Position numbers and translations under genes: made by a program
Assembly (NCBI GenBank): GCA_964595645.1
Contig: CAZQQT010000005.1
Location: 64,001 to 128,000 of the forward strand
Origin: an uncultured Thermococci archaeon
Lineage (GTDB): Archaea; Methanobacteriota_B; Thermococci; Methanofastidiosales; B48-G16
DNA: 64,000 nucleotides
Reading direction: 5' to 3'
The notes under the pieces: generated by a model
What the model was told of the DNA's origin: nothing
The model's database searches: none
What the model saw: only the letters and a program-made list of their open reading frames with translations
Shown: positions 925 through 7,378 of the stretch, in pieces
Numbering within the stretch: position 1 is the stretch's first letter
Layout of the letters: every line of letters starts with the position of its first letter

Positions 925-938
925 ATTAAGTTTATATA
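925..938 (+). promoter_or_regulatory. TATA box (TTTATATA 931-938) of the roadblock-minD operon
   Basis: TATA about 25-30 nt upstream of GTG962, with A-rich sequence upstream. Confidence 0.6.
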
Positions 939-961: not shown

Positions 962-1312
962 GTGAGTCCGATGATAGACAGACTGGTAGCAGATTTAAAG
1001 AAAATTGATGGAATAAAACATGTAGGAGTCATTGAAGGAGACAATCCTGTTGTGTCCGATATGCCCGAAGAAGAAGGTGAACTCCTGGCTAACACGATAA
1101 CAGAGATCTATGATGTGTCTGAGGAGACAGCTGACTCGACAGATATGGGTCAACTGGAGCAGATCCTTATCAGCGGATTTGAGGGAAAAATGGTCATTGC
1201 GAAAAGCGAAGAGTATCTTATCGGTGCAATTACCGAGACAAAAGTTAATTTGGGACTGGTACGGCTTAAACTTAGAAGCATACTTCGAGAATTAAAAGGT
1301 GAGAAAGAATGA
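962..1312 (+). CDS. Roadblock/LC7 (MglB-like) domain protein
   Basis: 116 aa, helix-beta-beta-helix-beta-beta-beta-helix pattern; GQLEQILISGFEGKMVI and NLGLVRLKLR motifs. Confidence 0.88.
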   Translation: MSPMIDRLVADLKKIDGIKHVGVIEGDNPVVSDMPEEEGELLANTITEIYDVSEETADSTDMGQLEQILISGFEGKMVIAKSEEYLIGAITETKVNLGLVRLKLRSILRELKGEKE

Positions 1313-1659
1313 TAATAGAAAAAGTGCTCGGAAAGTTAAAGGAGGAAAATGATGGAGTACTTGGCAGCAGTGTGATAGAGAAGGGTGGCTTTTTAGTGGC
1401 CATGGACGCACCTGCCGATCTAGGCATAGAAAAAAGTAGTGCAATGGCTGCTTCTGTGTTCAACAGACTCATGAGAAACGTAGAATCTTCAAAAGTTGGT
1501 GCAATCGATTATATTTTAATGGAAGGAAAAGAAGGGGATATGCTCGTTGTGGATGTGGGAAATGTCTACCTTTTTGTCAGGACGAAAAAGAACGCCACAA
1601 TTGCAAAAATAATGGAAGATGCAAAGGACGTTGGAAAGAAAATTGAAGCACTTATTTGA
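1309..1659 (+). CDS. Roadblock/LC7 (MglB-like) domain protein, second paralog
   Basis: [36 protein letters not shown] motifs; ATGA overlap with the upstream gene. Confidence 0.9.
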
Positions 1660-1673
1660 GGAGGATAGTGTAT

Positions 1674-2447
1674 ATGGGACAATCTATTGTTGTATCATCG
1701 GGAAAAGGTGGAACAGGAAAAACAACGATATGTGCGAATTTAGGGATAGCACTGGCTCAAAGAGGAAAGTCGGTGACGATCCTGGATGCTGATATTGATA
1801 TGGCCAATTTGGAACTTATGCTCGGTCTGGAGGGCATGCCTGTCACACTCCATGAGGTACTCTCCGGTGAGGCAGAGCCGGAAGAGGCAATATATGATGG
1901 TCCAGAGGGCGTGAGGATACTCCCTGCGGGGCTCTCACTGAGTGGTGTGCAGAAAGCAGATCCACGAAAACTTGAGAATGTGCTCAAGAAGCTTATAGGG
2001 GTCTCTGATTATCTCCTGATAGATGGAGCTCCTGGACTGGAAGTGGATGCGGTGACTGCCATTGCAGCAGCCCAGAATTTACTCCTCGTAGTAAATCCTG
2101 AGATAACATCCATGAGTGATGCACTAAAAACGAAAATCGTTGCTGAGAAGTTGGGGACACACATTATTGGTGTGGTACTCAATAGGGTAGGTTTTGATAT
2201 GACAGAGCTTTCAAAAGAAGAAGTAGAAACTATACTGGAAACAGAGGTAGTGGCTGTGGTTCCAGAGGACCCGGAGGTGAAAAGAGCAGCAGCCTTTGGA
2301 GAGCCACTTGTGACACGAAATCCAAACTCTTCGGCAACGATAGCGGTGAAAAAACTTGCAGCCGATCTTCTTGGTGAGAAGTATATTCCACCGTCCCCTG
2401 AAAATCCTCTTAAACGAATCTTCAAAGCACTCTTTGGAAGTGATTAG
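1674..2447 (+). CDS. minD: Archaeal MinD-family ATPase
   Basis: Deviant Walker [28 protein letters not shown]-terminal amphipathic helix [11 protein letters not shown]; ATG1674 follows GAGGAGG. Confidence 0.95.
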
Positions 2448-2449
2448 TA

Positions 2450-2653
2450 ATGCCTTTGATGGACATACTGGCAGCAAATGTCGAAATTTTATTTGTAGCA
2501 ACAGTGTTAAGTGTAATACTTAATATTATTTTAGCGTTGAAAGTCTCCTCATTACGATCGGAAGTGTCAAGATTGAAGGGAGGATCACTTACAAGAGAAG
2601 AACTCGAACTTCTCAAATCGCGGTTAACACGACTCAAAAAGCTTACGAGATGA
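2450..2653 (+). CDS. Small single-pass membrane protein with short coiled-coil tail
   Basis: Hydrophobic ILFVATVLSVILNIILAL then LTREELELLKSRLTRLKK; starts 2 nt after minD and overlaps the next gene (ATGA). Confidence 0.8.
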   Translation: MPLMDILAANVEILFVATVLSVILNIILALKVSSLRSEVSRLKGGSLTREELELLKSRLTRLKKLTR

Positions 2654-5600
2654 TGGGATTGACACGGTTGACAAGAAAAATCTATGTATTGTTGTTAGTC
2701 TTGATTATAGTATTTCCATACTCTGTGGAAGCGGTGGTGCAGGAAGATGGAAAAATAGAAGGGACAGTATCTGATGAGTTCGGTGATCCGATAGAGGGTG
2801 CTACTGTGGTCGCCTGTTGCTACATGAAACGGTACACTACAACGACGAATGCCGATGGAGAGTATACCTTTGAGGATGTGGCGTACGATACTGCAGGAAC
2901 GAAATACAGAGTAGAGGCGTATAGGGAAGCTACAGACGAAGAAAAGGGATACGAGAAAAATACAAAATCTACAGAATTAAAGAGCCCGCCAGATAATCAA
3001 AAAACGATTGATATTTCTTTAACAGAGCTCACAGAATCGAGAGCCAAGTATAAAGAACTTTATACATTATGGATGGAAGTAGGTGATCTTCGTGCGGTAG
3101 GTGAGTACACTATTGTTCTTTTTGATATTAGCAAACGAAGTTGGGAACATGCAGAAACAAGAATGTTCCCCGAAAAGGTTTATTTCCGTGTTTTTCGAGA
3201 GGGAAATTTTATTGATGAGTATATTCTCGATCTCTGCGATAACACGGTGATTATTCAGGAGGTCCTCAAGGTTGAGATGCTGAGCATTGAGGACAGAAAC
3301 TCTGATGGCGAGTATGAGGTGGAGCTTCGAATCTCCTCGAGAGAGCGTCCTTCCATCTCTTTGAGCATATTCAAACTCTACGAGAATGTGGCAATCAAGG
3401 AGAAAACGGTGAGTGTCAATGCCACAACAACAAGCGTTGAAATCGATGGAGAAGAGTTTAAAGCAGAAGTGACAGGAAATAGTTTCACAATAGATGTGAA
3501 CAAAAATGAGATCCTCGATCCTTACGAGACGTTTACTCCTGGTGACTCATTCTCAACAATTTCAGGCCCGTGCATCTCCACACGCTCGTACCGAATTGTC
3601 ACCATTTCTGGAAACACAGTAACTTTAAAACCGGAGATTCGAGAGTTAATGAATCCCGATGATTTCGATTTGAATGAGATGCAGACAACGACTCCCATTT
3701 CTGGGGAGGAATTTTACATGTACGCGGTGGTTGAAAATGTAGGGAACTACGATGCTACGGATGTGGTGGTGAGTGTCGATCATACCAATTATACACTTCT
3801 CAATTACTGTGATATCGCCAGTGATCATATTCCTATAGGGGGCATGGGTACAAAGGAAGGAGAAAATAAAAGCAAGGTCGTCCTCCTCCGATTAAGAGCT
3901 CCTACTGTTCCCTACGAAGAGTATCATCCAATTACCATCGGTGCGAACTACAAAATGGTGTATACGAGTGAGGAAGGAGATGTGGTAGAAGAGAAGTTCC
4001 AGAAGGAGTTCAAACAGGATGTCAATGTCTATCCAAAAACGGTCCAGCTCAAAATTGATCAGTTTGTCGCATTTAAGAAGCTTCTTCTCGGTGAGGAGAG
4101 CGATATCTCCATTACTGTAGAGAACGTTGGGGATATCACAGCATACGATCTTGAGATCACGTCATACCTCCCCGCTGGTCTCGAGTTGATCGAAGGAGAC
4201 GCCACACAAACAATCGAGGAGCTTTCGCCGGGAGACAGTACGCAGTTTTCGTACAGGGTAAAGGCGAAGGAGCTGGGAGATTACGATCTGATCACCAAGG
4301 TGCGGTACAAGGATGCGCGGGGAGAACAGTATGAAAAACAGTCGTTTCCAGTGCCATTTACCGTATATAAGGAATTTCCTCGGTTAGAGTTGAAGAAAAA
4401 TATCGATAAAACAAAGATTTTGGTGAATGAACATATTATTGTCGTGCTCGTGATCACGAACACAGGGAATAAACCGGCCAAGGATATTGTCCTAGTCGAT
4501 TCTATTCCCAAGAGCTTTTCGCTTGTGAGCAGCAAAGAAGAAGAAATTACAGGAAATGTGAACGTCTTTAAAATCGACCGGATGGAACCGAACGAGAAAA
4601 GAGTGTTTAGCTACGTGATCAAAGCGGACGAACCGGGTAAGTACACATTAAAAGGCTGTAAGGTGAAGTACGCTGATTACGAGGACAACCATTTCGAGTA
4701 CGAGGCGCCGGATGTGAATATCGATGTCAGTGGTATCCCAACCCTCGACCTGAGCTACGCTCTCTCCAGAGAGAGTGTACAGGATGGTGAGTTGCTGACT
4801 GTGATAAGCACGGTGAGGAATAAGGGGAACGGCCTCGCAGAAAATATCACGATCGACAATGTGTTTAACAAGGGAGAACTCGTCAATGGAGATCTCACGA
4901 AGGAGATAGCCGCCCTCAAACCGGGGGAATACCAAAGATATAAATTCACTGTGCGCGTGCCGGTCTCAAGTACGAAATACGATTTTGTGATCGACGCAAC
5001 CTACAGCTACGAGGACATTCTCGGCAATACGTATCCCAAAGACAAGAAATCAGTTCAGTTTGTTCAGACAATCGCTGCAGAAAAACCAAAAATCGATATA
5101 GCGCGGAGTGTCGAGAAAATGATCATCAAGAGCAATAAGTACTACGTGGACGCGGGATACTCCTTTATCGTTCGTATTTCAGCGGTGAACACCGGTTCGG
5201 CCGATGCGGTGGATCTCGTGCTCGAAGAATCACTTCCTTCTGGATTTGAGGTCATCGATGGGACAAACAGCTGGGAGGGTGATCTGAAGGTAGGGGAGTC
5301 AAAGACCCTCACCTATACAGCCATTGGACATGTGGGCGGCGCCTATACACTGACACCTCGGGCATCGTATAAGGACAAATGGGACGTATCGTACGCTGCT
5401 ACGGGGAAATCACTGCAGTTTACGCTTCGAGGATTGGACATCACAAAAAATGTGAGTAAAGAAGAGGTGGCAGAAGGAGACACGCTGAGCGTGACAATCA
5501 CGGTGCGAAATTACGGTAATGCTGAGATGAGTGACATTGTGATCGAGGACGCGGTACCCGAGGGATTTGAGATTGTAGAAGGAGAGACAACAGTACAAAA

Positions 5601-6348
5601 GGACCTTTTGGAAGGCGGAGCTTCAATGAGGCTCACATACACACTCAAGGCCGTATCTTCGGGAGAGTACACGATGGAGAAGGCACGAGTGCGATGGAAA
5701 AATCCCTATGGGGAATCACGACAGCTCGAGTCGACGACGTATGCGGTCACAGTTCAGAAACCCACACCGCCCCCAACTACCACGCCCGCACCGACGACGA
5801 CAGCCCCACCCAGTGTTGTGGAGCGATTTGGATCGACACTTCTCTGGATTCTTGTGGCTGTGCTGTTACTTCTCATAGGAATTATTGGAGGGCGTGCATA
5901 CCTCCGACGACGATCTGAGATGGAGGAAGAGGAGGTGTTTGGAGAGCTCGAAATCTCTGAAGAGGAACTATCTGAAGAGGAACTTCCAGAAGAAGAAACA
6001 CCCGGAGGGGAGCTCCCAGAGGGAGTATTTTTTGGAGAGGAAGAATCAGAGGAAGAAAAAACCCCACAGGAGCTTTTTGAAGAACTTTCTGTACCTGAAG
6101 AAGAGATGTACGAAGAAGAGGAAGAACAAGAGAGTGCAAGTGACGTTGCACCGGATTCCATCAAGAAAATTCTTGACTGGCAGGACCGAGAGGAGAAGAA
6201 ACGGAGAAAAAAGAAGGAACCGAAAGAGAAGGATGAAAAAAAGGAAAAGCAGTGGTTCGATCGCGATTACGAAGTGACCGATGATATGTCCCCGAGGGAA
6301 GTCTTAAAAGGAAAAAAGAAGGAAAAGGACAACGATGAAGATACTTAA
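2650..6348 (+). CDS. Large membrane-anchored surface protein (carboxypeptidase-regulatory-like domain, tandem DUF11/CARDB-like Ig repeats, Pro/Thr linker, TM helix, acidic cytoplasmic tail)
   Basis: Signal peptide; GKIEGTVSD..GDPIEGATV..TTTNADGEYTF; at least five repeats with a V-x-N-x-G motif; PTPPPTTTPAPTTT linker; TM LLWILVAVLLLLIGIIGG-RAYLRRR; Glu-rich tail. Confidence 0.85.
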   Translation: MMGLTRLTRKIYVLLLVLIIVFPYSVEAVVQEDGKIEGTVSDEFGDPIEGATVVACCYMKRYTTTTNADGEYTFEDVAYDTAGTKYRVEAYREATDEEKGYEKNTKSTELKSPPDNQKTIDISLTELTESRAKYKELYTLWMEVGDLRAVGEYTIVLFDISKRSWEHAETRMFPEKVYFRVFREGNFIDEYILDLCDNTVIIQEVLKVEMLSIEDRNSDGEYEVELRISSRERPSISLSIFKLYENVAIKEKTVSVNATTTSVEIDGEEFKAEVTGNSFTIDVNKNEILDPYETFTPGDSFSTISGPCISTRSYRIVTISGNTVTLKPEIRELMNPDDFDLNEMQTTTPISGEEFYMYAVVENVGNYDATDVVVSVDHTNYTLLNYCDIASDHIPIGGMGTKEGENKSKVVLLRLRAPTVPYEEYHPITIGANYKMVYTSEEGDVVEEKFQKEFKQDVNVYPKTVQLKIDQFVAFKKLLLGEESDISITVENVGDITAYDLEITSYLPAGLELIEGDATQTIEELSPGDSTQFSYRVKAKELGDYDLITKVRYKDARGEQYEKQSFPVPFTVYKEFPRLELKKNIDKTKILVNEHIIVVLVITNTGNKPAKDIVLVDSIPKSFSLVSSKEEEITGNVNVFKIDRMEPNEKRVFSYVIKADEPGKYTLKGCKVKYADYEDNHFEYEAPDVNIDVSGIPTLDLSYALSRESVQDGELLTVISTVRNKGNGLAENITIDNVFNKGELVNGDLTKEIAALKPGEYQRYKFTVRVPVSSTKYDFVIDATYSYEDILGNTYPKDKKSVQFVQTIAAEKPKIDIARSVEKMIIKSNKYYVDAGYSFIVRISAVNTGSADAVDLVLEESLPSGFEVIDGTNSWEGDLKVGESKTLTYTAIGHVGGAYTLTPRASYKDKWDVSYAATGKSLQFTLRGLDITKNVSKEEVAEGDTLSVTITVRNYGNAEMSDIVIEDAVPEGFEIVEGETTVQKDLLEGGASMRLTYTLKAVSSGEYTMEKARVRWKNPYGESRQLESTTYAVTVQKPTPPPTTTPAPTTTAPPSVVERFGSTLLWILVAVLLLLIGIIGGRAYLRRRSEMEEEEVFGELEISEEELSEEELPEEETPGGELPEGVFFGEEESEEEKTPQELFEELSVPEEEMYEEEEEQESASDVAPDSIKKILDWQDREEKKRRKKKEPKEKDEKKEKQWFDRDYEVTDDMSPREVLKGKKKEKDNDEDT

Positions 6349-7378
6349 GAAGGATATGAACAAGGGATTCATAAAGATTCGCGTGGACTCGTTGGACGAT
6401 CTCTGGCATCTCACCCACGTGATTGAGGAGGGCGACGATCTCGAAGGAAAGACGTTCAGGCGGGAGGAACAGCAAACAGACAAAATTAGAGATGAACGTC
6501 TTGAAAAAAAATCGGTTTATCTTAAAGTCCGTGCAGAAAAGATAGAGTTCCATAAAAACACGAATAGACTTCGGGTAACCGGTGTGATAGAGGAGGGGGA
6601 GGATGTGGGACGGTACCATACATTCAATATTGAGGAAGGAACTGTTATTGGGATCACGAAACAGTGGAAGGATCACCATCTTGAGCGGATGCACGAGGCT
6701 GTGGAAAGTGCACATGCACCTCGGATCCTCATTCTCGCGATGGACTCCGGCGATGCTACCTTCGGGCTTGTGAGAGGCTATGGTATCGATTTTCTAGGAG
6801 ATGTGAGTGAGAACGTTCCTGGTAAGTACTACTCGGTGACACGAGAAAAGGAACAGCAGCAGTTTTTTAAGGAGACCGCCGAGAAAATCGTCAGACTTCT
6901 CGATACGCACGACGTGGAGAAAGTGGTCATTGCTGGTCCTGGATTTACCAAACAGGAGTTCACCACCTACCTTCGGGAGGAGTATCCGCAGCTTGACGGA
7001 ACATATGTACTGCGGAAAGCGTCGACAGCTGGAAGAACAGGAGTGTATGAAGTAGTGAGACGAGGCGATCTGGAGGATGTGTACAAAGAGTCACGGGTAT
7101 CACGAGAGCTCGTCCTCGTGGAACAGATGTGCCAGAAGATACTGACGGACGAGGCGGTGTATGGTACGGAGACGGTGGAGAAGGCATTAACCTATGGGGC
7201 CGTTGACACACTGCTTATTCTCGACAAGCTCATGCGAGACGAACGGTACGAGGAATTGATGAAACAAGCTCGAAGTCAGAACGCAGAAGTCTACGTAATC
7301 AGCAGTGAGCATGAAGGCGGCGAGAAACTGGAGGGACTTGGAGGAATCGCTGGTCTTCTCCGGTTTAAAATCGGGTAA
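6335..7378 (+). CDS. pelA: mRNA surveillance protein pelota
   Basis: DDLWHL, RLRVTG, YHTFNI, IAGPGFTK, HEGGEKLEGLGGIAGLLRF. Confidence 0.97.
   Translation: MKILKKDMNKGFIKIRVDSLDDLWHLTHVIEEGDDLEGKTFRREEQQTDKIRDERLEKKSVYLKVRAEKIEFHKNTNRLRVTGVIEEGEDVGRYHTFNIEEGTVIGITKQWKDHHLERMHEAVESAHAPRILILAMDSGDATFGLVRGYGIDFLGDVSENVPGKYYSVTREKEQQQFFKETAEKIVRLLDTHDVEKVVIAGPGFTKQEFTTYLREEYPQLDGTYVLRKASTAGRTGVYEVVRRGDLEDVYKESRVSRELVLVEQMCQKILTDEAVYGTETVEKALTYGAVDTLLILDKLMRDERYEELMKQARSQNAEVYVISSEHEGGEKLEGLGGIAGLLRFKIG

Follow-up and report, generated by a model that had tools for sequence, protein, structure and literature searches.

Which partners does a MinD ATPase work with in an archaeon, and on what does it act? 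The question is raised by a gene set at positions 962-6348 of the window, by which we mean the whole stretch of 64,000 nucleotides (nt) analyzed here (contig CAZQQT010000005.1, positions 64,001-128,000 of the forward strand, assembly GCA_964595645.1) from an uncultured Thermococci archaeon (Methanofastidiosales; B48-G16). Five abutting open reading frames (ORFs), all on the plus strand, follow a TATA-like box:

931-938, plus strand: TATA-like box TTTATATA, read from the sequence, ∼27 nt before GTG 962 and putative in function.
962-1312, plus strand: RB1, a Roadblock/LC7 protein of 116 amino acids (aa) from GTG 962, or 113 aa from ATG 971.
1309-1659, plus strand: RB2, a divergent Roadblock/LC7 paralogue of 116 aa.
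1674-2447, plus strand: an archaeal MinD ATPase of 257 aa.
2450-2653, plus strand: SM, a small bitopic membrane protein of 67 aa with a transmembrane (TM) segment and a helix.
2650-6348, plus strand: a type I surface protein of 1232 aa with DUF11/CARDB domains.

The initial annotation had described five genes with overlapping or nearly abutting stops and starts behind a TATA box, and all ORFs and junctions, as well as a TATA-like element, were confirmed. Its interpretation, that a roadblock heterodimer activates MinD and that the two membrane proteins link MinD to the cell envelope, was borne out in part, namely, in the recurrence of roadblocks beside MinD and in the adjacency of SM. The main result, which lies outside the emphasis of that annotation, is the MinD-SM pair: SM is a near-obligate neighbor of an archaeal MinD clade. 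With moderate confidence, we regard the locus as one lineage's version of a module that is widespread in euryarchaea, has MinD and SM as its core and roadblocks as accessories, and controls surface structures.

SM had no match in Pfam or NCBIfam. Its single TM segment (approximately residues 11-30) leads into a basic juxtamembrane helix; after a GG hinge comes an amphipathic helix that bears the pattern [ST]xEEL..L..R. The positive-inside rule predicts a cytoplasmic C-terminus, which would place the conserved amphipathic helix where membrane-bound MinD sits. ORFs of 57-77 aa downstream of MinD in seven lineages (Hydrothermarchaeota, Archaeoglobales, Methanocellales, Methanoregula, Methanosarcinales, Theionarchaea, and Methanofastidiosales) gave an SM alignment nearly without internal gaps, with a common pattern of a TM segment, then R[IV]xQL, and then [ST]xEEL..L..R. 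The family was defined accordingly (alignment A2) as proteins of 57-77 aa with one N-terminal TM segment, R[IV]xQL, and a C-terminal [ST]xEEL..L..R helix, encoded directly after minD. The window SM matched the A2 profile with an E value of 8.8e-21, a figure that is partly circular because this protein was one of the profile-building sequences. In a large protein database, the family had 696 matches, corresponding to ∼200 representatives at 50% identity, and none of the 696 carried a Pfam domain. Used alone against 301 Halobacteriota genomes, the SM profile gave 101 matches at an E value of ≤0.01, i.e., in about a third of the genomes, and MinD lay directly upstream (0-30 nt) in 27 of the 30 best-matching loci. 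The coupling of a small TM and helical-coil protein to MinD, proposed initially from one locus, thus recurs. In the remaining 3 of these 30 loci, MinD is lacking, and the neighbors kept by SM are a roadblock gene and a response regulator. Within the order of the window, the profile was matched in 4 of 5 genomes of family f1, 17 of 17 of f2, 4 of 4 of f3, and 0 of 7 of f4, with one match per positive genome; 7 genomes searched from the sister family f5 had none. In the literature searched, neither the SM family nor a unit of MinD, SM, and roadblocks was found to have been described before.

As a side observation, SM stands between a roadblock/REC-MetOD2 pair and an ARMT1-like gene in three Halobacteriota loci (L134, L135, and L137) with no MinD upstream, where minD may have been lost or relocated and its partner SM kept. 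In the minD2 operon of Haloferax volcanii, a small downstream protein, HVO_0596, is predicted by AF3 to bind MinD2 (PMC11588486). We considered HVO_0596 as an SM homologue but did not accept it as one, as the 30 best SM-profile matches in the 301 Halobacteriota genomes included no high-GC (haloarchaeal-type) locus.

The other half of the pair is firmly assigned. MinD scored 344.1 bits against TIGR01969 (minD_arch; cutoff, 201.75), and its closest solved structure was Archaeoglobus fulgidus MinD-1 (1HYQ; E value, 3e-84). The deviant Walker A motif GKGGTGKT with its signature lysine and the switch motifs are present, and the motifs GKGGxGKT, DAD, and NPE, together with LLIDGAPG, were invariant over 22 orthologues. 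The C-terminus carries the amphipathic stretch LKRIFKALF, with hydrophobic residues at i, i+3, i+4, i+7, and i+8. For modeling, a paired alignment (A3) of 22 natural in-frame read-through MinD-stop-SM fusions was used, and the genus relative was folded with AF2; the orthologue model has a helix at residues 245-254, predicted to be a C-terminal membrane-targeting helix, and the modeled fold matches 1HYQ, 3Q9L, 4RZ3, and 5J1J. A MinD with an intact Walker A motif and an amphipathic C-terminal helix, as first described, is therefore what the profile score and the motifs indicate. The genome encodes three archaeal MinDs, and only the one in the window has SM or roadblock neighbors.

Roadblocks, which are related to eukaryotic Ragulator and dynein light chains, are encoded by the first two genes. 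RB1 just passed the cutoff of 23 for Pfam Robl_LC7 (PF03259; 23.5 bits; E value, 4.7e-5), matched a roadblock by sequence in the PDB (7YH1; E value, 2.8e-8), could be aligned over its full length with bona fide roadblocks with the helix motif NLGL[IV]R kept, and was 68-79% identical in family relatives. RB2 scored 20.8 bits, under the 23-bit cutoff, and is a roadblock by predicted fold: its AF2 model (predicted local distance difference test score, 93.1) has an alpha-beta-beta-alpha-beta-beta-beta-alpha topology, and Foldseek matches in the PDB, with template modeling scores of 0.84-0.94, included Asgard roadblocks, LAMTOR2, and MglB (9JUE, a roadblock, 0.94; LAMTOR2, 0.84-0.88; MglB, 0.85-0.86). 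The initial description of two divergent paralogues was upheld, their mutual identity being 17%, and by analogy, their side-by-side position suggests a LAMTOR2/3-like heterodimer. Fusions of a roadblock domain with another domain were sought by the Rosetta-stone approach, a weak type of evidence, and nothing scored.

To see how far these associations extend, MinD-anchored locus retrieval was used, because a word-based search for RB1 homologues reached family-level relatives only. The scan of species genomes retrieved 80 loci, 78 of them with a called MinD ORF; locus ORFs were greedy calls, TM counts came from a simple hydropathy window, and the genome samples were partial. SM was downstream of MinD in 45 of the 78 loci, a roadblock lay within 3 kb in 42, both were present in 23, and a PilB-like ATPase was found within 6 kb in 19. 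The gene orders were as follows:

Methanofastidiosales, family f1: RB-RB-MinD-SM.
Theionarchaea and two further genomes: MinD-SM-RB.
A Methanosarcinales metagenome-assembled genome: MinD-SM-RB-PATAN-x-RB.
Three Halobacteriota genomes: RB-RB-x-x-MinD-SM (RB115-RB∼250-369-237-MinD-SM).
Methanomicrobiales: RB-[PATAN-like-RB]-PATAN-like-MinD (RB115-[PATAN-like..RB ∼620]-PATAN-like 224-MinD-210-PilB3-like-TadC-TadC).
Methanoregula: divergent RB<>MinD-SM, with RB and REC-MetOD2 genes divergent from MinD-SM.
Methanopyri-labeled group: RB-291-MinD (RB128-291-MinD).
Methanocellales: MinD-SM-PilB-TadC-TadC.

The name PATAN denotes a Pfam DUF4388 match for the Methanosarcinales protein only; the Methanomicrobiales proteins had no Pfam match and are PATAN-like by sequence pattern. 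The full order, from the roadblock pair through MinD and SM to the giant surface protein, is kept within family f1. Roadblock-MinD adjacency, which the initial annotation had proposed to survey, recurs in at least six lineage groups and in at least six gene orders, i.e., with rearrangement. Seen from SM, a roadblock gene lay within 5 kb in 19 of 30 SM-bearing genomes (coordinates compared by hand), and ∼30 of ∼125 Robl_LC7 matches were near SM (within 5 kb), the chance expectation being ∼0.4% per roadblock gene; this is an enrichment rather than a formal test, related genomes being non-independent. In a quick MinD tree, the SM and roadblock states were scattered within one clade.

What, then, might the module act on? 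A firmly assigned MinD in a genome in which MinC and MinE are not found could be part of a division-site Min analogue, with SM or the roadblock dimer replacing MinE and some other factor replacing MinC, and some SM homologues have been automatically named "FtsL" by JGI pipelines. Indeed, MinE (PF03776) and MinC (PF03775) had no match at an E value of ≤1 in this 1.97-Mb, 99.96% complete genome, and the window's contig (C5) had no match to MinC, MinE, or Ras/Arf-like proteins, in line with the initial observation that the window lacks minC, minE, and an MglA-like GTPase. However, the name FtsL was assigned automatically on the strength of a TM-plus-coiled-coil shape, and no ftsZ, sepF, or cdv gene lay beside any inspected locus, the neighbors being type IV pilus (T4P) ATPases, TadC, PATAN-like proteins, and response regulators instead. 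Moreover, the archaeal MinDs studied so far position the motility and chemotaxis machinery and not the divisome (10.1101/2020.04.03.021790; PMC11588486; PMC13228585), and in H. volcanii, none of the four MinDs affects division, the divisome being positioned by the GTPase system DipABC (PMC13228585). On the literature and the gene neighbors, a division Min system was rejected; we consider it very unlikely.

The lineage context points instead to control of T4P-like surface machinery. The pointers are the PilB/TadC genes beside the module in two archaeal orders, the PATAN or PATAN-like proteins and response regulators that are its neighbors in other lineages, and a DUF11 giant that sits inside a T4P operon of the same genome, which has two such loci:

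Contig C13 (G000:C13; L121:3-8923), minus strand: a T4P-like operon, the last gene of which encodes an 1833-aa DUF11 protein and overlaps the preceding gene by 11 nt.
Contig C1 (G000:C1; L122:6632-14396), plus strand: a T4P-like operon, the last gene of which encodes a protein of 1363 aa that combines a pilin-like N-terminus with Big_1/invasin domains.

Known systems offer partial likenesses. Like the MinD of the window, H. volcanii MinD4 and MinD2 are archaeal MinD-family ATPases without MinC or MinE; they act, as the window MinD may do, on the placement of surface machinery (motility and chemotaxis) rather than on division. No roadblock partners have been reported for them, and the solved structure closest to the window MinD is that of A. 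fulgidus MinD-1. Bacterial MinD-MinE and FlhG/FleN share the deviant Walker A motif, the C-terminal amphipathic helix, and a small protein encoded adjacently, and how many surface appendages there are and where they stand is controlled by FlhG and FleN. SM differs from MinE in having a true TM helix and no sequence similarity (SM is without a Pfam match, and Pfam MinE was not found in the genome); in the window, no MinC, FlhF, or FleQ was seen. A survey of archaeal pili associates FleN/MinD (arCOG00589) and roadblocks (arCOG02603) each separately with T4P (Makarova, Koonin, and Albers 2016, PMC4858521). The families and the T4P context are thus those of the Methanocellales and Methanomicrobiales versions of the module, but the portion of that survey considered here describes neither a MinD-roadblock unit nor a small TM partner. 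The initial suggestion that roadblock and MinD genes occur near euryarchaeal pilus loci accordingly holds for that survey, within the same limit, and for the Methanocellales and Methanomicrobiales loci but not for the window genome, in which the module is not beside a T4P locus.

Positioning or regulation of surface structures is the probable role of the MinD-SM core with its roadblock accessories. Archaeal MinD proteins oscillate, and we know of no ATPase-stimulating or anchoring partner for them. In the scheme that we propose, in which the physical contacts, the direction of regulation, and the cellular output are what we infer, ATP-bound MinD dimers would bind the membrane via their C-terminal amphipathic helix and would meet there the cytoplasmic helical tail of membrane-fixed SM, which would serve as a MinD anchor and/or an ATPase-modulating partner. 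The RB1-RB2 heterodimer would be an accessory regulator or adaptor of this MinD-SM switch. The output would be the placement, number, or assembly of cell-surface structures, namely, PilB/TadC T4P-like machines in Methanocellales and Methanomicrobiales and, in family f1, the giant surface protein with DUF11 repeats; its cytoplasmic tail, long and charged, may act as a cargo handle. Two candidate partners of archaeal MinD are thereby named, the SM family and the recurrent roadblocks, and the link to T4P-like loci hints at how non-motile archaea might place adhesive surface structures.

A bolder version would have SM as the missing archaeal MinD partner, a membrane-embedded functional analogue of MinE or MinJ: through its cytoplasmic helix, SM would bind MinD dimers and govern the ATPase and membrane cycle of MinD. 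The roadblock heterodimer would be a direct regulator of MinD, and together the parts would make a new self-organizing system for positioning archaeal surface structures. We think this improbable. If it were true, MinD would be the first roadblock client other than a small GTPase, and any action of roadblocks on MinD would widen what they are known to serve from small GTPases to SIMIBI ATPases.

Several points weigh against a module of this kind and should be set against the evidence given above. Roadblocks were not found beside MinD-SM in the three f2 loci examined and in the Hydrothermarchaeota, Archaeoglobales, and Methanocellales loci seen; this makes an obligatory direct roadblock-MinD mechanism unlikely, and by the same patchiness, roadblocks look like accessories and SM like the core partner. 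Deletion of the small gene after H. volcanii minD2, the product of which may or may not be an SM homologue, had no phenotype (PMC11588486). Both T4P loci of the window genome lie off the window's contig and have no MinD beside them. The surface-protein gene was seen beside the module in family f1 only; so narrow a link could have arisen by recent juxtaposition. All roadblock clients known to us are TRAFAC GTPases, and MinD is a SIMIBI ATPase. Lastly, the genome encodes a stand-alone MglA-like GTPase on contig C10, a 169-aa protein with Arf/Ras matches and a GTPGQ motif.

The last two points belong to another explanation, in which RB1 and RB2 are MglB-type regulators, similar to GTPase-activating proteins or guanine nucleotide exchange factors, of a GTPase encoded elsewhere, MinD is not their client, and the adjacency reflects a common surface or polarity pathway. 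Every characterized roadblock regulator acts on small GTPases, and MglA-MglB is linked to T4P polarity in Myxococcus (PMC4316618). RB2 has the same predicted fold as MglB and LAMTOR2, the roadblocks of the MglA-MglB and Ragulator (LAMTOR2/3) systems; the window operon differs from MglA-MglB in that it encodes no GTPase and in that the adjacent NTPase is a SIMIBI-class ATPase, a type of client never shown for roadblocks. Ras/Arf matches were found elsewhere in the genome, on contigs C4, C10, C3, and C1, and none of these GTPases is near RB1 or RB2, as it would be in an MglA/MglB switch. Besides RB1 and RB2, there was one further Robl_LC7 match, on contig C11. The loci concerned are as follows:

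Contig C10, at the contig end (G000:C10:91112-92782; L160:3112-4782), minus strand: a three-gene set encoding a PATAN-like protein (260 aa), the GTPase (169 aa), and a probable roadblock (126 aa).
Contig C4 (G000:C4; L120:4267-6095), minus strand: a KaiC-Arf fusion of 390 aa, with a KaiC-like ATPase domain and a C-terminal Arf/Ras-like GTPase domain; it adjoins a second KaiC-like (DUF7504) gene.
Contig C11 (G000:C11; L004:4591-6691), minus strand: a V4R-domain protein and a roadblock (Robl_LC7; E value, 3.5e-13) in one operon.

PATAN-like proteins are classic MglA/MglB neighbors. Their presence in the Methanosarcinales (Pfam DUF4388) and Methanomicrobiales (sequence reading) loci, together with the stand-alone GTPGQ GTPase and the KaiC-Arf fusion, supports a GTPase client. 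The C10 GTPase, however, seems to be served already. It is preceded by the 260-aa protein, PATAN-like in its N-terminus by sequence reading, and directly followed by the 126-aa protein, which is probably a divergent roadblock (hidden Markov model score, 13.8 bits; hhalign E value, 0.001, with a probability of 21%; Atlas, 0.92 to Robl_LC7 clusters). The GTPase explanation is weakened by this probable roadblock of its own, and the proviso of the initial annotation that the roadblocks might pair with an MglA-like GTPase encoded elsewhere was answered in both directions, in that such a GTPase exists but has its own probable partner. In addition, no GTPase gene was seen in the ∼110 MinD loci inspected, bar an unrelated NOG1-type gene beside one paralogue, and orphans without a GTPase neighbor account for 328 of 749 MglB homologues (Wuichet and Sogaard-Andersen 2014, PMC4316618). 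A GTPase elsewhere as the client of RB1 and RB2 is possible, yet we regard it as on the unlikely side.

It may also be asked whether the five genes share anything beyond a promoter. The surface protein has a Sec signal, a CarboxypepD_reg domain, at least four DUF11/CARDB repeats (Pfam E values, 8e-39 for DUF11 and 4e-21 for CARDB), a Thr/Pro stalk, a TM segment at approximately residues 1063-1083, and a cytoplasmic tail of ∼145 aa that is first acidic and then basic. Up to the TM segment, it is 63% identical to the protein of the genus relative, in which short tail motifs such as APDSIKK[IV]L[DE]WQ and DDM[ST]PREVLKGKKKEK are kept. It is a family-level addition to the module: the 1232-aa protein and its adjacency hold in f1 as first described, and a link to the module outside f1 is not supported. 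At its 3' end, the gene is overlapped by 14 nt by a sixth gene, which corrects the five-gene unit:

6335-7378, plus strand: pelota/aDom34 gene (eRF1 domains 1-3).

The same overlap exists in the genus relative (L039, 10560 versus 10573), and with pelota included, the transcription unit may hold six genes. Pelota was rejected as a component of the module, being a universal ribosome-rescue factor. Upstream, the unit is limited by a tRNA-Gly gene on the opposite strand (791-862), and the transcript is expected to carry a very short leader or none; a sigma-70 promoter scanner was set aside as not applicable to archaea. The overlap with unrelated pelota, the restriction of the surface-protein adjacency to f1, and the three f2 loci examined in which no roadblock was seen favor co-transcription without a common function beyond MinD-SM, the surface protein and perhaps the roadblocks having been placed there by rearrangement. 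Against this, roadblock adjacency recurs independently in many lineages, and a DUF11 giant is operonic with T4P genes elsewhere in the genome. The junctions also argue otherwise. The RB1 stop and RB2 start overlap in ATGA (1309-1312), as do the SM stop and the surface-protein start (2650-2653), and the ATGA overlaps at both junctions indicate translational coupling. SM, which we regard as translationally coupled to MinD, starts 3 nt after the MinD stop (2447 to 2450). The MinD start is ATG 1674, favored over TTG 1656 by orthologue alignment, with the RB2 end at 1659, and in relatives, RB1 has an ATG start where the window has GTG 962. Rearrangement with only a promoter in common is thus doubtful in our judgment, and we retain the module of MinD and SM with roadblock accessories.

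Some minor observations accompany these loci. In several Methanomicrobia-type loci (L074:3589-4956 and L155:222-1622, as well as L156 and L157), a gene of 455-469 aa resembling the large subunit of NiFe-hydrogenase lies directly upstream of the roadblock pair; a Pfam assignment backs this description only in L074 and L155, and the L155 gene extends over the start of the roadblock gene. The V4R-roadblock pair on contig C11 is followed by four tightly packed ORFs of ∼100 aa without a Pfam match, and a similar V4R-like-roadblock pair occurs in one genome of the sister family f5 (L037). In the window, two short overlapping ORFs (53 and 57 aa) lie on the plus strand at 433-748, between tRNA-Leu and tRNA-Gly, the first of them with a hydrophobic, signal-like N-terminus.

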